Below the pieces are notes generated by a model. The model saw nothing but the letters and a program-made list of their open reading frames with translations, was not told the origin of the DNA and ran no database searches. Shown piece by piece: positions 11,392 to 19,242 of a DNA stretch of 64,000 bases (position 1 is its first letter; every line of letters starts with the position of its first letter). The stretch is from an uncultured bacterium (GTDB taxonomy: Bacteria > Verrucomicrobiota > Lentisphaeria > Victivallales > UBA1829): positions 3,798 to 67,797 of the forward strand of contig CACYZF010000003.1 of NCBI GenBank assembly GCA_902778895.1. The letters are read 5' to 3'. The translations under genes and the position numbers were made by a program.

Positions 11392-12504
11392 ATGACGGGC
11401 AGCACACAGATTACAAAGACCGATGGGACCAGGATCGCGGAACAGCGGGATATCTGGCCGGACATCCTCCGCATCGTCGCCGTGTTCGCCGTCGTCGTCC
11501 TGCACACGGGAGTGGAGCATTTTTACCGGATCGACACCCGGACAGCCACCTGGCAGATATGCAATCTCTGCGAATCGCTGGACCGGTTCTGCGTGCCGGT
11601 CTTCATCATGGTCTCCGGGCATTTCCTGCTGGATCCGGACAGGGAATACACGCTGAAAAAACTGTACGGCGTCAAGATACTGAGGCTGGCGACGGCATAT
11701 CTCTTCTGGTCCGTTTTCTATGTGCTGACCGATTACTGGTTCGCCTTGAAATACGGCCACGACGTCAAACTGACCTGTTCCGTTTTTTTCCGGGAGGCCG
11801 TCGCGGGGAAATATCATCTGTGGTTTCTGCCCATGATGGCCGGACTGTACATGGTCACGCCGGTCCTGCGGCACATCGTCAGGAGCGAAACCGTCACCGT
11901 TTATTTCCTCGCTCTTTCCCTCGTGTTCGTTTTTGCCGTCAATACGCTCGACCTCATCCCGGTCTTTCATGACACGGTCACGCCCGATATCAACCGTCTG
12001 GAGATCAAACTCGCGGTCGGCTTTTCCGGATATTACGTCCTCGGCTTCTGGCTGGCCCGGCACGAGCTCAAACCCGCCGCAAGAAAAGGCGTATATCTCG
12101 CGGGGATCCTCGCTGTCCTCGCGACCGCCGCCATCAACGGCGCGATCGGGTACCAGCTTCATCGCCCCGGGGAATGGATGTTCGGCACACTCATCCTGAA
12201 CACGCTTCTTGCCTCGGCCGCCGTGTTCGTCTTCTGCCGGTATCAGTTTCGGGACTGGCGGCCCGGTCCCGGCGTGCGAAAGCTGACCGGACTGCTCGGA
12301 AAATGGAGTTTCGGCATCTATCTCGTTCACCTCTTTGTTCTTGCGTACTTCAATTACATCCTGATTCGGCTCGACGTCTTTTCGTTCGTCTGTGCGCATC
12401 CCCTCGTTTCGATCCCGGTCGCGTCCGCCGCGGTCTTTTCCGTCAGCGCCCTGTTCGTTTCCGTGTTAAGCAGGATCCCCATCCTGAACAAATACATCGT
12501 CTGA
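11392..12504 (+). CDS. acyltransferase family 3 (O-acyl/acetyltransferase) membrane protein
   Basis: WPDILRIVAVFAVVVLHT N-terminal motif and about 10 TM helices typical of Acyl_transf_3. ATG at 11392 is preceded by CAGGAAAGG. Confidence 0.8.
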   Translation: MTGSTQITKTDGTRIAEQRDIWPDILRIVAVFAVVVLHTGVEHFYRIDTRTATWQICNLCESLDRFCVPVFIMVSGHFLLDPDREYTLKKLYGVKILRLATAYLFWSVFYVLTDYWFALKYGHDVKLTCSVFFREAVAGKYHLWFLPMMAGLYMVTPVLRHIVRSETVTVYFLALSLVFVFAVNTLDLIPVFHDTVTPDINRLEIKLAVGFSGYYVLGFWLARHELKPAARKGVYLAGILAVLATAAINGAIGYQLHRPGEWMFGTLILNTLLASAAVFVFCRYQFRDWRPGPGVRKLTGLLGKWSFGIYLVHLFVLAYFNYILIRLDVFSFVCAHPLVSIPVASAAVFSVSALFVSVLSRIPILNKYIV

Positions 12505-12533
12505 CGCGGAACGACACGATCAGAGGAGCAAAA

Positions 12534-13493
12534 ATGATTTGGAAACAGAAGCTCGTCCGAAACACTCTCTTCGCCGTGCTCGCCGCGACGCTCAGCGTCC
12601 TTTGCACCGGATGCACGGCGATCGTGCTGAAAGGCCAGTTCGGAGCGAAGGAGTCCCGGTTCGATCTGCCGAAATACGCCATGTCGCCCGACCGCCGCGA
12701 GATCACCGTGACGAGCGCGTGGGAAACCCGCCGTTTCCTCCAGCCGCCCTCGATTTGGAACTCGACCTGGAAAGAACGCATTCCGGTGGAGCCCGTGCCG
12801 GACTGCCTGATACGGTGCTTCCTCTTCGTGGAGCCGGATCCCGACGCGCCGCGATACTGGCACGACGCCCCCTTCGTGATAAACACGGACGTGCTCCCGC
12901 TCAACGAGGACAGAACGCTTTATCTCCGGGTCCACCCCGATGAACTGGACGACCTCTCCCAGCCGTTCAAGGTCAAACTGATCCCGCGGGGAGAAGAAGC
13001 CGGTCCTCCGGAAAAACAACCGGAAGGCGAGCTCCGCATGATGTTCCCCGTCGCCGTGAACGGAAACATGTATGTGCTCCTGACCGCCGCACCCGGGGAA
13101 CCGCGGACGAATCCCTTCCGGCAAAAGGCGAAAGAGGTATCCCTGAAGGAGACAGAAGGACGGGGCGAATTTTCTTATTTTACTATGGTTAAAATATTTC
13201 CGTCCTTAATCGGCAGTCAGCAATCCCGCGCATCGCTGACCCGGGCGGCGTACGAATGGGACGAACGCGAGGCGGACCGGTATCTTTATCCTTTCTGCGA
13301 GGGGATGGATGAAGTGCGCATGATCGAATACGAACGCAGGTTCGGGGAACGGTTCCCCACCTGGGACGCGGTCCTCTGGAAATCGCTCTGTCTGCCCCCG
13401 GCGGTCGTCGTGGATACGGTGCTCATGCCTGCCTATTTCGTGGGGAGCGTGGGATTGTACGCGATTCTTCTTCCGTTGAGCGGGATCCAATAG
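12534..13493 (+). CDS. lipoprotein, tandem paralog family member 1 (YceK/YidQ-like C-terminal motif)
   Basis: True start is ATG 12534 (RBS GAGGAG); the 12174 extension overlaps the upstream gene. Signal peptide plus xTGC lipobox. Shared family motifs: YAMSPDRREI, ERIPVEPVPDCLIRC, LRVHPDELDDLSQPF, MFPVAVNG. C-terminal LPPAVVVDTVLMPAY. Confidence 0.8.
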   Translation: MIWKQKLVRNTLFAVLAATLSVLCTGCTAIVLKGQFGAKESRFDLPKYAMSPDRREITVTSAWETRRFLQPPSIWNSTWKERIPVEPVPDCLIRCFLFVEPDPDAPRYWHDAPFVINTDVLPLNEDRTLYLRVHPDELDDLSQPFKVKLIPRGEEAGPPEKQPEGELRMMFPVAVNGNMYVLLTAAPGEPRTNPFRQKAKEVSLKETEGRGEFSYFTMVKIFPSLIGSQQSRASLTRAAYEWDEREADRYLYPFCEGMDEVRMIEYERRFGERFPTWDAVLWKSLCLPPAVVVDTVLMPAYFVGSVGLYAILLPLSGIQ

Positions 13494-13512
13494 CGCCGCC
13501 GTTTTGTGTCCT
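13494..13512. repeat. left copy of the 19-bp direct repeat flanking the TA cassette
   Basis: CGCCGCCGTTTTGTGTCCT, compared with CGCCGCCGTTTTTTGTCCT at 14609-14627 (18/19 identical). Confidence 0.8.
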
Positions 13513-13561
13513 CGAGCTATCGCTTTCAGAAAAGAAAACTCTCTTGATTTTCGAATCGGAT

Positions 13562-13590
13562 TTGACTTTTTCCTGTTTCGGACGTAAATT
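13562..13590 (+). promoter_or_regulatory. putative promoter of the MNT/HEPN cassette
   Basis: TTGACT (13562-13567), 17 nt spacer, TAAATT (13585-13590). RBS AGGAGA precedes ATG 13639. Confidence 0.45.
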
Positions 13591-13638
13591 AAAGATATTG
13601 AACCGGAAACGAGTCGTTTTTTAAGCAGGAGACAAACC

Positions 13639-13929
13639 ATGTGCCAGCTCGACAGACTGCGCAGTTTGAGAAGCGAGATCTACGAGATCGCCAGGAAGCA
13701 CAAAGCCGACAAGGTTTATGTGTTCGGTTCCTGCGCCCGCAAGGAGGAAACGCCCGACAGCGACGTCGATCTTCTGGTCGAACTGCAAAAAGGCGTTTCG
13801 TTCCGCGATTTGCTCGGACTTCAGGACGGCTTCGAAAAGCTTCTTGGATGCAGCGTCGACGTCGTTTCCAAAAACGGACTCAGTCCGTTCATCAGAAACA
13901 CCGTTCTGTCCGAGGCCGTCCTGTTATGA
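13639..13929 (+). CDS. minimal nucleotidyltransferase (MNT/MntA-type antitoxin)
   Basis: 96 aa. Pol-beta NTase motif VYVFGSCARKEETPDSDVDLLV (GS-x10-DxD). The stop overlaps the next start (ATGA at 13926-13929). Confidence 0.85.
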   Translation: MCQLDRLRSLRSEIYEIARKHKADKVYVFGSCARKEETPDSDVDLLVELQKGVSFRDLLGLQDGFEKLLGCSVDVVSKNGLSPFIRNTVLSEAVLL

Positions 13930-14589
13930 AAAAACGCTCGGACGATACGTTCCTTCTGCACATTCATGAAGCATTGAACGATATCGTTTCGTACACGGCG
14001 AACGGTCAGGCCGAGTTCTTCGCAGAGAAAGAAAATGCAGCAGGACGCCGTTGAACGAAAGTTTGAGATCATCGGCGAGGCCGTCAAAAACTTATCCCAG
14101 GGCTTTCGGGAAAAGTATCCGAACGTTGACTGGTCCTACATGGCGAAGTTCCGCGATTTGCTCTCGCATCATTATTTCGGGATCGATCTGGATGTCGTCT
14201 GGTCGATCGCGCAGGAGGATGTGCCTCAAGCACTGAAACAGATCGAAGAAATTCCTGAATTCCGGAGCGCGAAACAGCAATTCGACCAATCACAGGAACA
14301 TGCTCTTGATTTTCTGCTTCGCAATCAAGCTGAAATCCGGGAAATCGCCGGACGGTTCAATATAAAATCACTCAGGGTTTTTGGTGAAATCGCCGGTCGT
14401 TCAGAGAAATATGATTCGGACTTGGAGTTTCTTTTCGAACCGCCCCGGCCTTTTTCTCTTTTTGATCAAGCCGCATTTCTGAATGAGCTTACCGTTCTGC
14501 TCAGGCGCAGGGTTTCTCTTGTTTCCCCTGACTGCCAATTGTATCAGGAGCATCCTGAGCTGTTTGGGAATTCCGTCGAAATCCTGTAG
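13926..14589 (+). pseudogene. HEPN (DUF86/HepT-like) toxin gene interrupted by a frameshift and fused to a degenerate second MNT domain
   Basis: Frame 1 (13926-14054) encodes MKKRSDDTFLLHIHEALNDIVSYTANGQAEFFAEKE and then stops. The +1 frame (ATG 14035 to 14589) continues MQQDAVERKFEIIGEAVKNL...RDLLSHHYF (Rx4H). The shift lies in the A-run GAGAAAGAAAATG. The C-terminal ~100 aa (LRVFGEIAGRSEKYDSDLEFLFE) resemble an NTase with GS->GE and DxD->DxE. It could alternatively be expressed from 14035 as an N-truncated HEPN-MNT fusion. Confidence 0.55.
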
Positions 14590-14608
14590 GCGTGCCATAG
14601 AACTTTTA

Positions 14609-14712
14609 CGCCGCCGTTTTTTGTCCTAATCCGCTGATTTTTTTTTATTTAGGTTGTTTTTTCGGATAGTTGTGATATAGTATGACAGAAACTCGTCATA
14701 CGGAGCGATCAC
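14609..14712 (+). repeat. intergenic promoter module, copy A (also the right 19-bp direct repeat of the TA cassette)
   Basis: CGCCGCCGTTTTTTGTCCTAATCCGCTGA-T9-ATTTAGGTTGTTTTTTCGGATAGTTGTGATATAGTATGACAGAAAC...CATACGGAGCGATCAC is near-identical to 16241-16344. Contains -35 TTGTTT (14654-14659) and an extended -10 TGATATAGT (14673-14681). Confidence 0.75.
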
Positions 14713-15930
14713 ATGAACTCGAAACAGACACTGATCCGCCATCTCCTGTTCGCCGTGGTCGCCGCGGCGCTTTGCGTCTGCGGCACGGGATGCCTCTCCG
14801 CGAGTATCCTGAACAGCGAATTCGCCTCGAAGCGCTCCACGTTCACCGATTACCGGTACGACATGTCGCCCGACCGTGACGAGATCATCCTCACGTGCAA
14901 ACGGAACCGGGCATACAATTTCCTGCCGCTGTACGGGTCCATCCACAGGAACGCCGCGTGGACCTGGAGTTCGACCTGGGAGGAGCGCATCCCGCTGGAC
15001 CCCATGCCGGAGTGCCTGATACGGTGTAGCCTGATCGTGGAGACCGATCCCGAAGCAGGGCGTCTCCTGTGGGCGGACCATCTCCCGACGGCCGTGATGG
15101 AGGTCGAATCGCTCCCGATCCGGGAGGGCGAAACGTTTTATCTGAAAATCCATCCCCACGACCGGGAAAGACTGTCGAAACCGTTCCAGCTCCGCCTGGT
15201 CCCAAAGAAAGCCGATCCCGAAGAAGCCCCGACGGACGCGGACGAAAACGTTTCCGCGCCGGAAAACGCTTCAGGGGCCGCGCCGGAAAACGCGCCGGAA
15301 ACAAAGACCGCCGCGCCTTCTCCGCCGGAATACGAAAAGCGTCTCATGTTTCCGGTCTCCGTCACGCTGGACGGCAGCCGCTATGAACTCCTGACCCTCG
15401 CGCCGGAAAAGATGACGCCCGTCAATCCTTTCCGGAAGATCCGGGAAGATCGGATCAAGGCCCTGGGGGAAAAACGGAAAGAAGCCGAACAGAAGAGAGC
15501 GCAGGAGCAGGACGGAGAACAGGACGGCGCGCAGAAACAAAAGAGCGGTGGGTCACAAAGCATGCTCATGTTGCCTAAGTCGGGGGTTCTTGCGGCAGCG
15601 CTGCTGCTCAGTCGTACAGGGAAATCCGAACGGGGAAATCTTCTGGAGATCGAGGAGAAAAACTGGGACTTTCAGGAGGCAAACCGGTTTCCCGGCCTTT
15701 ATCCGTTCCGCGAAAGCCAGGAAGAGGTCTGCATGATCGAGTACGAACGCGCGGCAGGGGAACGGTTCCCCACCGTGGATGCGGTCCTCTGGGAAACGCT
15801 CTGTCTGCCGTCCGCGATCGTCGGGGACGTGATCCTTTTGCCCGGCGAAATCGTCATTTTCGGTGGAACCACCTTTCTCATTTACGCGATAGTCAAGGGG
15901 ATTCAAGAAGAGGGCAGCCCGATCCAATAG
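14713..15930 (+). CDS. lipoprotein, tandem paralog family member 2 (longest; low-complexity inserts)
   Basis: 405 aa. Lipobox CGTGC. Family motifs YDMSPDRDEI, ERIPLDPMPECLIRC, MFPVSVTLDGSRYELL. C-terminal LPSAIVGDVILLPGE. Extra APENA and E/K/Q-rich segments. Confidence 0.8.
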   Translation: MNSKQTLIRHLLFAVVAAALCVCGTGCLSASILNSEFASKRSTFTDYRYDMSPDRDEIILTCKRNRAYNFLPLYGSIHRNAAWTWSSTWEERIPLDPMPECLIRCSLIVETDPEAGRLLWADHLPTAVMEVESLPIREGETFYLKIHPHDRERLSKPFQLRLVPKKADPEEAPTDADENVSAPENASGAAPENAPETKTAAPSPPEYEKRLMFPVSVTLDGSRYELLTLAPEKMTPVNPFRKIREDRIKALGEKRKEAEQKRAQEQDGEQDGAQKQKSGGSQSMLMLPKSGVLAAALLLSRTGKSERGNLLEIEEKNWDFQEANRFPGLYPFRESQEEVCMIEYERAAGERFPTVDAVLWETLCLPSAIVGDVILLPGEIVIFGGTTFLIYAIVKGIQEEGSPIQ

Positions 15931-15965
15931 CGCCGCCCTTATTACACGTCATACGGAGCAATCAC

Positions 15966-16240
15966 ATGACCGGGAAAAAGACACTGATCCTCCGTCTCCT
16001 GTTTGCCGCGGCATGCAATCCCAGTTTTGAGCTTGCAACCGCAAAAGTCACTGGAGATTTGCGGTAAACAGTTGCAAAAGTCGCAGGAGAATCTTTGTAA
16101 ATCCAACATCCAATATCGGATTTGCAAAGATTTTACGCATGGGATACCGTATGATCCTGTCGCGCGGCTTCTGCCCGAATATGCCGTGGCGGGCGCGGAC
16201 ACTCCCATGGTCCTTATTTTGGGGGAAACGCGATCCAATC
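15966..16240 (+). pseudogene. decayed sixth copy of the lipoprotein family
   Basis: Starts with the family leader and N-terminus (CATACGGAGCAATCACATGACCGGGAAAAAGACACTGATCCTCCGTCTCCTGTTTGCC = MTGKKTLILRLLFAA), then diverges and stops at 16067. The far end keeps a mutated family 3' junction (GATCCAATCGCGCCGAC versus GATCCAATAGCGCCGCC). Confidence 0.6.
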
Positions 16241-16344
16241 GCGCCGACTTTTTTGTCCTAATCCGCTGATTTTTTTTATTTAGGTTGTTTTTTCGGATAG
16301 TTGTGATATAGTATGACAGAAACACAGTCATACGGAGCAATCAC
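16241..16344 (+). repeat. intergenic promoter module, copy B
   Basis: Near-identical to 14609-14712. T-tract is 8 rather than 9, with a few substitutions. -10 TATAGT at 16307-16312. Confidence 0.75.
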
Positions 16345-17274
16345 ATGACCTGGAAAAAGACAGTCGTCCGCAATGTTCTCTTCGCCGCGCTCGCCGCGGC
16401 GCTCGGGCTCTTCTGCACCGGGTGCTTCACCGCCATGACCCTGGACGAACTCGGCTCGACAAAGTCGTACATCGCCGGAGAGCGTTACGGGTTCTCCCCA
16501 AGCCGCGACGAGATCGTTTTTTTCTGCCGGAAGGAAAAAGAGTATTATTACATCCCGTTTCTTCATCCGTTCGGCGTGGCGCCGAAAAAGACGATCCAGT
16601 CTTATGAGAAGCAGATTCCGCTGAATCCCGTCCCGGACAACCTGATGCGCATTGAGTTGGAAGTGACCCCCGACGCATCCGCCGCGCGGGCGGATAAGTC
16701 GCCGTTCACCGGTGCGAGAGGCGGTTTCCGTGCATTGGACGGGATCATGACGTTTTCGATGCCGGCGGAACGCCTTCGCGGGGATGCCGGTTCTTCTCCC
16801 GCTCCGCCGCCGATCCTTGCCGCCGGGGACACGCTTCGCCTGCGGGTGCATCCCGATGATCTGCCTCTCCTGTCCGAGCCGTTCGTGATTTGTCTGCCCG
16901 TGCCGTTCGACCGGCTCATGAACGAGTTTTATCCCGAATACCGAACCGTTTCCGGTGAATCGGCGCAGCCGGAGCACGCTCATGACGCCCATGAACGAAA
17001 TGCCACGGTTCATCTCCTCATTTTCCCGTACGCACAGGACGGCGGCCATTATCAGGCGCTGATGGATGCGGATTTGGGGTTCCGCAATCTCCATCCGTTC
17101 TCACGCGAACTCGAAGCCGAGGTGAAACAGGATAACGAACATTCGATCGGCTTTTTCGGCTGGTGCTGGAAGATCTTCTGGGTCCCAACGGCGCTCGTCG
17201 TGGATGTCGCATTGATCCCCGTTTATCCGTTTTACCTGCTTTACCGGGTCTGTTCCGGCGAATCCGTCCTGTAG
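16345..17274 (+). CDS. lipoprotein, tandem paralog family member 3
   Basis: 309 aa. Lipobox FCTGC. Motifs YGFSPSRDEI, KQIPLNPVPDNLMRI, LRLRVHPDDLPLLSEPF. C-terminal VPTALVVDVALIPVYPF. Confidence 0.8.
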   Translation: MTWKKTVVRNVLFAALAAALGLFCTGCFTAMTLDELGSTKSYIAGERYGFSPSRDEIVFFCRKEKEYYYIPFLHPFGVAPKKTIQSYEKQIPLNPVPDNLMRIELEVTPDASAARADKSPFTGARGGFRALDGIMTFSMPAERLRGDAGSSPAPPPILAAGDTLRLRVHPDDLPLLSEPFVICLPVPFDRLMNEFYPEYRTVSGESAQPEHAHDAHERNATVHLLIFPYAQDGGHYQALMDADLGFRNLHPFSRELEAEVKQDNEHSIGFFGWCWKIFWVPTALVVDVALIPVYPFYLLYRVCSGESVL

Positions 17275-17292
17275 ATTATCCGAGGTGAACCT

Positions 17293-18249
17293 ATGCAGGA
17301 TAAGACGCTCATCCGCAATCTCCTCTTTGCCGTGCTGTGCATGGCGGTCGGTCTGTCCGCCACGGGGTGCATTTTTACGGACATCGAGAACGTCGGGACG
17401 ACCAACACGGAATTCAGCGAATACCGCTACGAAATGTCTCCCGACCGCGACGAAATCGTCCTCACGGCCACAAGGACGAAACAGTTCTTTTATCTGCCGC
17501 TTTACGATTTTCCGGCGTGGACATCCGTCAGGACCGTGGAGGAACGGATCCCGCTGGACCCCCTGCCGGAAAATCTTTCGCGATGCGGCATGATCGTGGA
17601 GGTCGACCCGGACGCGCCGCCCGCGAAGGCGGGGGAGCTCCGCCCTCTGCCGCCCGGATACTGGGATATGGACGAAGACGAGAGGAACGACCCGTCCAAG
17701 GTTCAATATGAATTCAAGGCATACGTCGACGAGCTCCCTTTGCAGGCCGGCGAAACATTCCGTCTCCGGGTCCGGCCCGATGATCTGAAACACTTGGACC
17801 AGCCGTTCCGCGTCAGCATCATTCGCAAAGGAGGGAGGCCGGATGTCCTTCCCCCGGACCTTGAGGCTTATCTCAAAAAGCGCCATCTTTCCGAAGACAA
17901 AGAATACATCGACTATCTGTATACCCGAGGGGAAGAGTACCTGATGTTTCCCTATGCCGTGAACGGCAGCCGCTACGAGCTCCTGAGCGACCTGAGGACG
18001 TTTTACGGGTGGGGGGAGCATGACACCCTGCCCTTCGGCAGGGAGTGGGACGAGGAGAGAGAAAACGAGTATTACCGTCCCCCGTGGATGGGATTCGGCG
18101 GCGGCGAACCGCGCGGGAAGCCTACAGCAGGCGCCATCTGTCTGAAAGTCGTTTGTTTTCCGCTGGCGCTTGTCGAGGACACGCTGCTTCTGCCGGTCTA
18201 TATCCCGCTCGGAGCCGTCATGCTGTTCAACTATGCTTTCGGCAACTGA
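17293..18249 (+). CDS. lipoprotein, tandem paralog family member 4
   Basis: 318 aa. RBS GAGGTG. Lipobox SATGC. Motifs YEMSPDRDEI, ERIPLDPLPENLSRC, FRLRVRPDDLKHLDQPF, MFPYAVNGSRYELL. C-terminal FPLALVEDTLLLPVYIP. Confidence 0.8.
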   Translation: MQDKTLIRNLLFAVLCMAVGLSATGCIFTDIENVGTTNTEFSEYRYEMSPDRDEIVLTATRTKQFFYLPLYDFPAWTSVRTVEERIPLDPLPENLSRCGMIVEVDPDAPPAKAGELRPLPPGYWDMDEDERNDPSKVQYEFKAYVDELPLQAGETFRLRVRPDDLKHLDQPFRVSIIRKGGRPDVLPPDLEAYLKKRHLSEDKEYIDYLYTRGEEYLMFPYAVNGSRYELLSDLRTFYGWGEHDTLPFGREWDEERENEYYRPPWMGFGGGEPRGKPTAGAICLKVVCFPLALVEDTLLLPVYIPLGAVMLFNYAFGN

Positions 18250-18276
18250 TCTATAAGCGGAAAGGGGCGAGCAGGC

Positions 18277-19242
18277 ATGTTTCCGATGATGCACAATATG
18301 CTTTTCAGGCGGTTCCTCCTGCCGTTCGCGTCCGTCTGCGTCCTGATGCTGTCTTGCACCGGGTGCGTGACCCGTTCGGTCATTGACGACCTCGGCACGA
18401 CCAATACGGAATTCACCGATTACATCTACATGATGTCCCCCGGCCGCGACGGGATCATCGTCCGGAGCAAGCGGACGATCAAGTACAACTGGCTGCCGTT
18501 CTACGGATCGTTTCATCGCACGCCCGCCTGGACTTCGGTTTCGAACTGGGAAGAGTTCATTCCGCTTTCCCCTCCGCCGGAAAACCTCTCGCGATGCAGT
18601 CTGATCGTGGAAACTGCGCCGGACGCGCCGGAGCCCGATTATCTGGCGCCCGTCTCCCGGTCGGAATTCGCCTACGCGATCCGGAAAGATTGCGAGTCCC
18701 TCTGCGCCGGCGGTCAGTACGAATTCGAGATCCAGACCGATGAACTCCCCCTTCGCGAAGGCGACACGCTCCGGCTCCGGGTGCAGCCCCGGCATCTGCC
18801 TTACCTGTCCCAGCCGTTCCGCATCCGGCTGGTCCGCCCGTTCGAGAAAGAGGACTGGTTCCCGCGGCACGCCCGGCGGGAGGTTGCGAACAACAGCGAA
18901 CAGTATTTCATGTTTCCGGTCGCCGCGGACGGCAGCCGCTACGAGCTCCTGACCGTGCTCCGGCCGTGGGACGAATGCCACAGCAGCGCCGGGTCTCGGG
19001 AGTGGATCGACAGCATTTACCCGTTCCGGGAAAGCCAGCGGGAGGAGATCATGCGGGAATACGGCGACAGACGTGACGCTTACGATGAACGTCCGCATAC
19101 CGACGGGAAACCATCTTTCGGGGCCATCTGCTGGAAAGCCCTGTGGTTCCCCTCGGCGCTCGTTGCGGATGTGGTATGTCTTCCGGTCTACGCGGGCGCA
19201 ATAGGTATGCTGGAATTAGTCCGCCTCCAACGAGGGTATTAG
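18277..19242 (+). CDS. lipoprotein, tandem paralog family member 5
   Basis: 321 aa. Lipobox SCTGC. Motifs YMMSPGRDGI, EFIPLSPPPENLSRC, LRLRVQPRHLPYLSQPF, MFPVAADGSRYELL. C-terminal FPSALVADVVCLPVYAG. Confidence 0.8.
   Translation: MFPMMHNMLFRRFLLPFASVCVLMLSCTGCVTRSVIDDLGTTNTEFTDYIYMMSPGRDGIIVRSKRTIKYNWLPFYGSFHRTPAWTSVSNWEEFIPLSPPPENLSRCSLIVETAPDAPEPDYLAPVSRSEFAYAIRKDCESLCAGGQYEFEIQTDELPLREGDTLRLRVQPRHLPYLSQPFRIRLVRPFEKEDWFPRHARREVANNSEQYFMFPVAADGSRYELLTVLRPWDECHSSAGSREWIDSIYPFRESQREEIMREYGDRRDAYDERPHTDGKPSFGAICWKALWFPSALVADVVCLPVYAGAIGMLELVRLQRGY

Follow-up and report, generated by a model that had tools for sequence, protein, structure and literature searches.

A type VII-like cassette with a split toxin gene

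The window analysed here, a 64,000-nucleotide stretch of a contig from an uncultured bacterium of the Victivallales, carries a small cassette resembling a type VII (HepT/MntA-like) toxin-antitoxin system in which the toxin gene is broken by a frameshift. The genes and gene parts of this cassette lie on the forward strand. A consensus scan placed a promoter-like site (TTGACT-17-TAAATT, 13562-13590, also forward) at the head of the cassette, in a block conserved across 12 loci with otherwise unrelated upstream flanks. It is followed by mntA (13639-13929), an intact gene for a 96-aa minimal nucleotidyltransferase (MNT) antitoxin, identified by Pfam, motif and dN/dS (ratio of non-synonymous to synonymous substitution rates) evidence, with AGGAG ahead of its start. 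The gene shares the bases ATGA (13926-13929) with the next open reading frame (ORF), which is the 5' fragment of the toxin gene, here termed hepT-psiMNT. This fragment (13926-14054) ends after 42 codons at a TGA (14052-14054). Its codons 1-35 (13926-14030) are homologous to an intact protein, P0001 (94% identity, tblastn E=8e-17), and are followed by seven out-of-frame codons. The remainder of the gene is read in the +1 frame as a 3' ORF of 184 codons (14035-14589) that begins at a conserved methionine, Met36, and matches the Pfam HepT-like family at E=3.3e-21 over profile positions 25-120; its product, P0018, is present in NCBI, Logan and ENA assemblies. The 3' ORF comprises HEPN residues 36-106 (14035-14247), a linker of ~18 residues (residues 107-124, 14248-14301) and an MNT-fold domain, psiMNT (residues 125-219, 14302-14586), which was recognised by homology, fold, motif loss and dN/dS. 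The toxin ORF is thus not intact, the gene being split into 42 + 184 codons. An initial annotation of this DNA had described the ATGA coupling, a DUF86-like N-terminus stopping at 14054 and the continuation of the HEPN domain, with its Rx4H motif, in the +1 frame from 14035, and all three descriptions were borne out.

To locate the lesion, the window was aligned at the DNA level with L003, L004, L009, L010, L015, L016, L068 and L069. The intact homologues all read GCAG-AGAA-AATGC, and the window reads GCAG-AGAA-AGAA-AATGC. The lesion is a tandem duplication of AGAA (14026-14033; 4 extra nt, +1 frame change): the junction sequence of intact relatives is GCAGAGAAAATGC, with the ancestral protein junction ...AEK-M(R/Q)QD..., and the duplicated-unit sequence of the window allele is AGAAAGAA. 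The duplication falls after codon 35 and shifts the frame, so that translation from the coupled start stops after 42 codons. Removing one or four bases restores the frame, and adding one base leads into the third frame. The earlier proposal that one extra A would restore the HEPN domain therefore had the direction wrong, and the homopolymer slippage in an A-run on which it was based gives way to a 4-nt duplication. An ENA scaffold (L001; 298,781 bp, sample SAMEA5383919) and a Logan contig (L002; run ERR3224598) carry the identical lesion, and each is 100% identical to the window.

The domain assignments of the two genes were examined with profile, motif and structure searches. The upstream MNT matched Pfam NTP_transf_2 (E=2.7e-14) and Polbeta (E=2.7e-13), as well as NCBIfam MntA_antitoxin at E=3.9e-14 and 52.4 bits, which is under the curated cut-off of 60 bits. 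Its motif reads G30-S31-X10-D42-V-D44 and is complemented by a third aspartate, D74, in agreement with the GSX10DXD definition of MntA (PMC7641770). The frame-repaired toxin aligned end to end with the Pfam HepT-like family PF01934 (1-120/120, E=7.5e-26). The RX4HXY motif is kept as R75-DLLS-H80-H81-Y82 (14152-14175) and is invariant in 31 family members. The MNT gene stands directly upstream of, and is co-oriented with, the DUF86/PF01934 gene, an arrangement that is kept in all related loci. When the family profile was compared by sequence with solved HepT chains, none was found at E<=1; the HEPN assignment rests on Pfam and Foldseek. An AlphaFold2 (AF2) model of intact P0001 (mean pLDDT 88.5, pTM 0.62; helix alpha1 at residues 6-23) resembled the HepT chains of 7BXO and 6M6U in its N-terminal half, and the predicted folds matched both chains of 7BXO, 6M6U and 7AE9. 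Collectively, at the level of sequence, the locus has the features of a type VII system except for an intact toxin ORF.

The intact fusion family and its C-terminal MNT-fold domain

A search with the repaired protein returned 21 clusters (90% identity) of intact 219-aa proteins, 77-95% identical at 100% coverage, and 13 distinct intact coding sequences of the fusion gene are known. More distant full-length relatives have 218-222 aa (~51% identity) or 213 aa (~43%). All loci examined have an MNT gene for 96 aa ahead of the fusion gene, and the 4-nt overlap is the same in each. The named genomes with the operon are rumen metagenome-assembled genomes (MAGs) of Victivallales/Lentisphaeria, one of which, Tb.RUG.336, holds both the 219-aa and the 213-aa systems. 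In a set of 1.84 billion representatives at 50% identity, the close family fills just three clusters (P0061, P0062 and P0063). The nearest non-fused relatives are Lentisphaeria HepT proteins of 121-126 aa, which end where the first helix of the fused MNT begins. A distant protein of the same architecture, P0203 (225 aa; L064, 3-813), has an Rx4H-bearing HEPN domain and a tail without GS or DxD. Its gene shares bases with the 3' end of an MNT-like ORF that precedes it, and P0203 thus represents a second lineage with the three-part layout. Together, these comparisons indicate that the fusion of HEPN to a dead MNT is ancestral and conserved, and not a product of the lesion in the window.

The C-terminal tail was assigned to the nucleotidyltransferases (NTases) by several routes. 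By BLASTP it is 33% identical to the upstream MNT over 76 aa (E=3e-8). The family profile matched 90 of 98 residues of a putative minimal nucleotidyltransferase of known structure (PDB 1WOT, E=5.4e-9), and the PADLOC MNT profile PDC-S09 matched the tail at E=2.4e-13. In Foldseek searches the AF2 tail resembled the MntA chains of 7BXO and 6M6U and also 1WOT (TM 0.78), with AadA among the weaker fold matches of the model. Pfam NTP_transf_2 (PF01909) failed the gathering-threshold test on the window tail, with no match at E<=1, and matched none of the tails of the 31 family members at E<=0.01; an NCBIfam single-sequence scan of the tail gave no usable NTase match. Since the tail is unseen by Pfam and NCBIfam, its NTase assignment rests on the family profile, PADLOC, BLASTP against the cognate MNT and the fold search. 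The profile comparison suggested in the initial annotation thus upheld the HepT-like half and failed for NTP_transf_2 on the tail, while the underlying claim of an MNT-like C-terminus of ~100 aa stood by the other routes, at ~95 residues. When the tail alone served as query in a word-indexed search, all that came back were fragments belonging to the same family, which gave no indication of where the tail originated.

Read from the family alignment, the catalytic residues of the tail are degenerate throughout the family. Where active MntA has G-S, the window tail has G152-E153 (14383-14388), and other members have GC, GD, GG, SK, TQ, GA or GS. At the DxD site the window tail reads D164-L-E166 (14419-14427), and others read ELE, VFE, DFD, DIE or PVE, or have a deletion leaving DLN. 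The third Mg-binding aspartate is replaced by S196 in the window (14515-14517; VDVV to VSLV), and the residue at this position is always non-acidic in the other members. The changes of GS to GE and of DxD to DxE had been noted before; the loss of the third aspartate adds to them. In S. oneidensis MntA, D39, D41 and D71 bind two Mg ions and G27/S28 bind phosphates, and even the D39E/D41E substitution abolishes AMPylation, with HepT binding unaffected (PMC7641770). Given this sensitivity of MntA and the motif losses in the tail, the tail is very probably catalytically dead.

To assess constraint, pairwise Nei-Gojobori dN/dS was computed for the 219-aa group from 14 distinct coding sequences. The values were 0.055 for HEPN, 0.053 for the linker and 0.115 for the tail, compared to 0.062 for the upstream MntA. 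Identity between the deep groups was 66-75% for MntA, 56-69% for HEPN and 23-45% for the tail. The tail is therefore the fastest-evolving part of the protein yet is clearly constrained, and these values point to purifying selection on a functional, non-enzymatic domain. Of the earlier suggestion of an N-truncated HEPN tethered to a pseudo-antitoxin, the pseudo-antitoxin domain thus holds, as an ancestral domain under purifying selection; the truncated product is considered below.

Several other proteins and loci touch on this family. Apparent relatives from Dehalococcoidia and Acidobacteriaceae in a genome scan were rejected as ordinary two-gene MNT + HEPN pairs in which tblastn had joined the upstream MNT to the tail. 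Most two-stretch matches in the representative search had been taken for MNT-HEPN fusions, and both of those inspected (P0066 and P0083) were HEPN-HEPN dyads. P0046 (334 aa) is a chimeric prediction that passes from an EF-G-like GTPase N-terminus through a fragment of linker and dead MNT (83% identical) into low complexity, and is either a misassembly or a rearranged remnant. At a non-fused relative (L043, 1010-2147), the MNT + HepT (122 aa) pair is preceded, at a distance of 190 nt, by a further active MNT gene (96 aa) that stands as an orphan, so MNT genes duplicate in tandem in this clade. P0090 (L065, 2501-3516; also L066 and L067) is a mirror image of the window family: its 226 aa combine a degenerate HEPN, with RNFLAQ in place of the motif and the histidine lost, with an active MNT (GSX10DXD). 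The P0090 gene is overlapped by a separate 112-aa HepT-like gene downstream, and an rve-family transposase gene lies nearby. The two fusion polarities together suggest that each arose when HEPN1 became fused to MNT2 within a tandem MNT-HEPN-MNT-HEPN array.

Independent disruptions and the meaning of the frameshift

Alignment of related loci indicates at least six disruptions of hepT-psiMNT that arose independently in related populations, the window allele among them. The +4 AGAA duplication at codon 35/36 is carried by the window, L001 and L002 (one sample, at least two assemblies). A +4 duplication of GGTC, ~35 nt upstream of the AGAA site, occurs in L012-14 from three samples and also restarts at Met36. 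L068 and L069 (two samples) have a 1-nt deletion (-1 T) in CATTATTTC at codon 83, and L015-17 have a 2-nt insertion in the tail near codon 181. In L070 and L071 (two samples), which belong to an L012-like lineage without its duplication, K73 has become a stop (AAA to TAA). In L072, mntA and codons 1 to ~54 have been swapped for unrelated AT-rich DNA. The HEPN domain is struck in five of the six disruptive alleles, and mntA is open and full-length in all five alleles that keep it. Over 4.2 kb (window 12154-16384), L069 and the window share 99.24% identity and the same genomic context; L069 has a single copy of AGAA and is broken instead by the -1 T. In L069 (1486-1824), the mntA stop has changed from TGA to TGC, lengthening MntA to 112 aa. 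The pattern of disruptions fits repeated, irreversible loss of the toxin and not a conserved recoding site or a phase-variable tract. Recurrent knock-out of the toxin with mntA kept would be the usual decay route of a chromosomal toxin-antitoxin module.

On this evidence we consider the locus likely to be a rumen Victivallales toxin-antitoxin cassette of type VII (HepT/MntA-like), with a toxin gene that is a recent loss-of-function pseudogene. The mechanism proposed here draws on characterised systems (PMC7641770, PMC13000451, PMC11586414). The ancestral operon consists of the promoter, mntA (96 aa, with its catalytic motifs) and, joined to it by the ATGA overlap, a 219-aa gene combining a HepT RNase domain with a dead MNT-fold domain. 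In intact alleles, the live MntA would AMPylate Tyr82 beside the RNase motif, as in Shewanella HepT/MntA. A product restarted at Met36 would be without helix alpha1 of the HEPN four-helix core, and for this reason would most likely have no RNase activity. The dead MNT domain may be a non-catalytic structural or regulatory module, and we favour a tethered MntA paralogue that keeps its protein-binding surface and would either restrain HEPN dimerisation, as the MNT of FhepTA does, or dock the live MntA. The inactivation of the toxin proposed in the initial annotation is supported, with a tandem duplication taking the place of slippage as its cause.

Several points weigh against this explanation. 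L001 and L002 may share one sequencing run, in which case they still exclude an artefact of the assembler but do not count as two biological observations, and because the data are assemblies only, the AGAA allele may be heterogeneous within the population. On the window branch there are ~7 non-synonymous changes against 4 synonymous ones, and they include G7D at a glycine that does not vary elsewhere; the branch of intact L009 has 4 against 2. These counts are tiny, and relaxed selection following the frameshift is not demonstrable from them. The role given to the dead MNT is inferred, and the pTM of 0.62 means that the domain arrangement of the AF2 model is not confidently predicted. A functional truncated product is possible, given that the 184-codon ORF has stayed open and that a second allele, L012-14, has arrived at the same ORF from Met36. 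Finally, the toxicity, RNase activity and AMPylation of the module are predicted properties.

A further reading, which goes beyond decay of the toxin gene and which we regard as tentative and on balance doubtful, is that HepT-psiMntA with a separate live MntA forms a class of its own, with three domains, among type VII toxin-antitoxin or defence modules, in which the dead nucleotidyltransferase, being tethered, would act as a built-in pseudo-antitoxin or sensor. The tail would then hold HEPN off, sterically or through dimerisation, or would recruit MntA, providing a second lock besides AMPylation. The mirror-image P0090 and the distant P0203 fit such a class and suggest that both forms arose repeatedly. 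If this were true, the many toxin knock-outs would reflect a real fitness cost in rumen populations.

It is less likely still, and in our view improbable, that an N-truncated 184-aa protein is made by re-initiation at Met36 and kept for a new, non-toxic function, for example as an MntA-titrating decoy or a trigger. In both the window and L012-14, an independent +4 duplication has spared the same 184-codon ORF beginning at the invariant Met36. From the ATG at 14035 it is just 17 nt downstream to the stop of the 42-codon ORF, which makes termination-reinitiation conceivable, and changes in the L012 lineage are still mostly synonymous. However, no Shine-Dalgarno-like sequence precedes ATG 14035, whereas mntA has AGGAG, and helix alpha1 as placed by the AF2 model would be missing from the product. 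In the same sub-lineages, other alleles (the K73 stop and the -1 T at codon 83) destroy this ORF as well, and a recent lesion explains the open ORF equally well, L069 being <1% different from the window. The truncated product of the earlier suggestion therefore finds little favour.

A regulatory role of the interruption is very improbable. Here, programmed +1 frameshifting (for example with Lys-tRNA slipping at 14028-14031 from AAA onto AAG) or a reversible change in the number of AGAA units would tune toxin dosage. Read from the sequence, a +1 slip at AAA-G gives ...AEKKMQQD..., which is nearly wild type; a two-copy tetranucleotide could in principle revert by slipped-strand deletion; and 4-nt tandem duplication has created two independent alleles. 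Against this, the site is in frame in 13 of 13 intact coding sequences and in 21 of 21 intact protein clusters, the intact homologues all having one AGAA unit and the window just two, and the site lacks a stimulatory stop or rare codon as well as any tract of more than two units. The closest relative, L069, is single-copy and broken by a different lesion, and the nonsense codon, 1-nt deletion and 5' replacement seen elsewhere are not reversible switches. The initial annotation's second option, +1 frameshifting or homopolymer phase variation, is accordingly set aside: the intact homologues read through, there is no long tract, and L069 is broken at another place.

A clean 4-nt tandem duplication is atypical as a short-read error, and although the window is a metagenome assembly and the two agreeing assemblies may use the same reads, an artefact of sequencing or assembly hiding an intact 219-aa gene is just as improbable, since two different assembly pipelines (L001 and L002) yield the same sequence, which argues against an assembler artefact, comparable disruptions recur across samples (L012-14 in three, L068/69 in two and L070/71 in two), and the exact repaired window protein, sought as an intact allele of the same strain, had no match among 15 billion proteins.

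Genomic setting and relation to known systems

Across genomes, homology of the cassette starts at about the TTGACT box and ends ~20 nt past the stop codon, and the flanks differ. In the window, the cassette sits among a tandem array of lipoprotein-like paralogues, inside a 19-nt direct repeat of the array's intergenic sequence. A repeat search (family D12, no strand assigned) placed the left copy, CGCCGCCGTTTTGTGTCCT, at 13494-13512 and the right copy, CGCCGCCGTTTTTTGTCCT, at 14609-14627, the two being 95% identical, and an uninterrupted copy of the repeat-bearing intergenic sequence lies at ~16236-16260. The 19-nt bracket has the look of a target duplicated on insertion, or of a footprint left by recombination. 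It is conceivable that a terminator or target-site duplication marks out a mobile unit.

The array itself (12540-19242) consists of ~five paralogous genes with lipoprotein-like signal peptides, for example at 14713-15930, 16345-17274, 17293-18249 and 18277-19242. Its genes share repeated coding blocks, and the 54-nt promoter/leader segments at 14639-14692 and 16270-16323 are 100% identical. Homologues of the array products in related loci have no recorded Pfam family. Between two members, at 15966-16226, a 33-codon remnant like the signal-peptide start of the array genes (MTGKKTLILRLLFAAAC...) is followed by ~160 nt of unrelated sequence, after which the intergenic repeat returns; a member of the array has probably decayed here. 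The cassette of the 213-aa paralogue has a different setting. In IMG/VR L059 (2992-3920; also L058 and L060-L063) it lies on the opposite strand inside a phage structural block, adjacent to a major tail protein (phrog_1407) and near a head decoration protein (phrog_122) and a head protease, and looks like a phage moron.

The frameshift in itself is routine: a toxin gene decays and its antitoxin survives. The value of the locus lies in what repair of the frame revealed, a conserved HepT, kept by selection, with a dead copy of its own antitoxin. Because the tail is invisible to Pfam, databases label the fusion proteins simply HepT-like. Regulation of the RNase by the dead MNT, or recruitment of the live MntA through it, would, if real, give the most abundant predicted toxin-antitoxin family a pseudoenzyme control layer. 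The six independent knock-outs in one narrow clade also constitute a small natural experiment on the cost of carrying the toxin.

Compared to characterised type VII HepT/MntA systems, the cassette has the same plan, in which translation of the DUF86/HepT gene is coupled to that of the MNT gene ahead of it. This MNT has GSX10DXD and the third aspartate, and the toxin has RX4HXY, the tyrosine of which is AMPylated in characterised HepT systems (PMC7641770). The MntA is short (96 aa) and without the long alpha4 helix, like the Legionella MNT. The differences are that the toxin ORF in the window is broken and that the toxin bears an extra C-terminal MNT-fold domain without catalytic signatures. 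This extra dead domain is undescribed in characterised type VII systems. The layout of MNT followed by HEPN-MNT is non-canonical, as had been pointed out from the sequence at the start.

Other systems join the two folds in one polypeptide. FhepTA, the fused MNT-HEPN of Shewanella prophage CP4So (SO_1440; Yao et al. 2026, PMC13000451), has an active MNT that self-AMPylates and also sterically blocks HEPN dimerisation (PMC13000451). FhepTA and the window family share the presence of MNT and HEPN domains on one polypeptide, but the order is reversed, with HEPN (1-106) N-terminal and the MNT fold (125-219) C-terminal here. The fused MNT is active in FhepTA, whereas it is dead here (GE, DLE and S196), and FhepTA is a single gene, whereas a separate live mntA gene is present here. 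If the tail is regulatory, the family would complement this recently described fusion. Kanamycin nucleotidyltransferase, AadA and proteins of the GlnE/GlnD type are also alike in the covalent pairing of an NTase fold with a HEPN fold (Anantharaman et al. 2013, PMC3710099). There it is the HEPN that is dead and the NTase that is live; in contrast, the window family pairs a live-looking HEPN (Rx4H) with a dead NTase. The 2013 HEPN survey describes DUF86 as 'occasionally fused to MNT' and the MNT-fused HEPN as typically the inactive partner (PMC3710099). P0090, with its degenerate HEPN and active MNT, shows this known polarity, and the window family shows the opposite one. In the literature searched, no description of a live MntA together with a HepT-dead MNT fusion was found. 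A live MntA with a HepT fused to a dead MntA is a new version of type VII toxin-antitoxin systems and forms a small, undescribed family.

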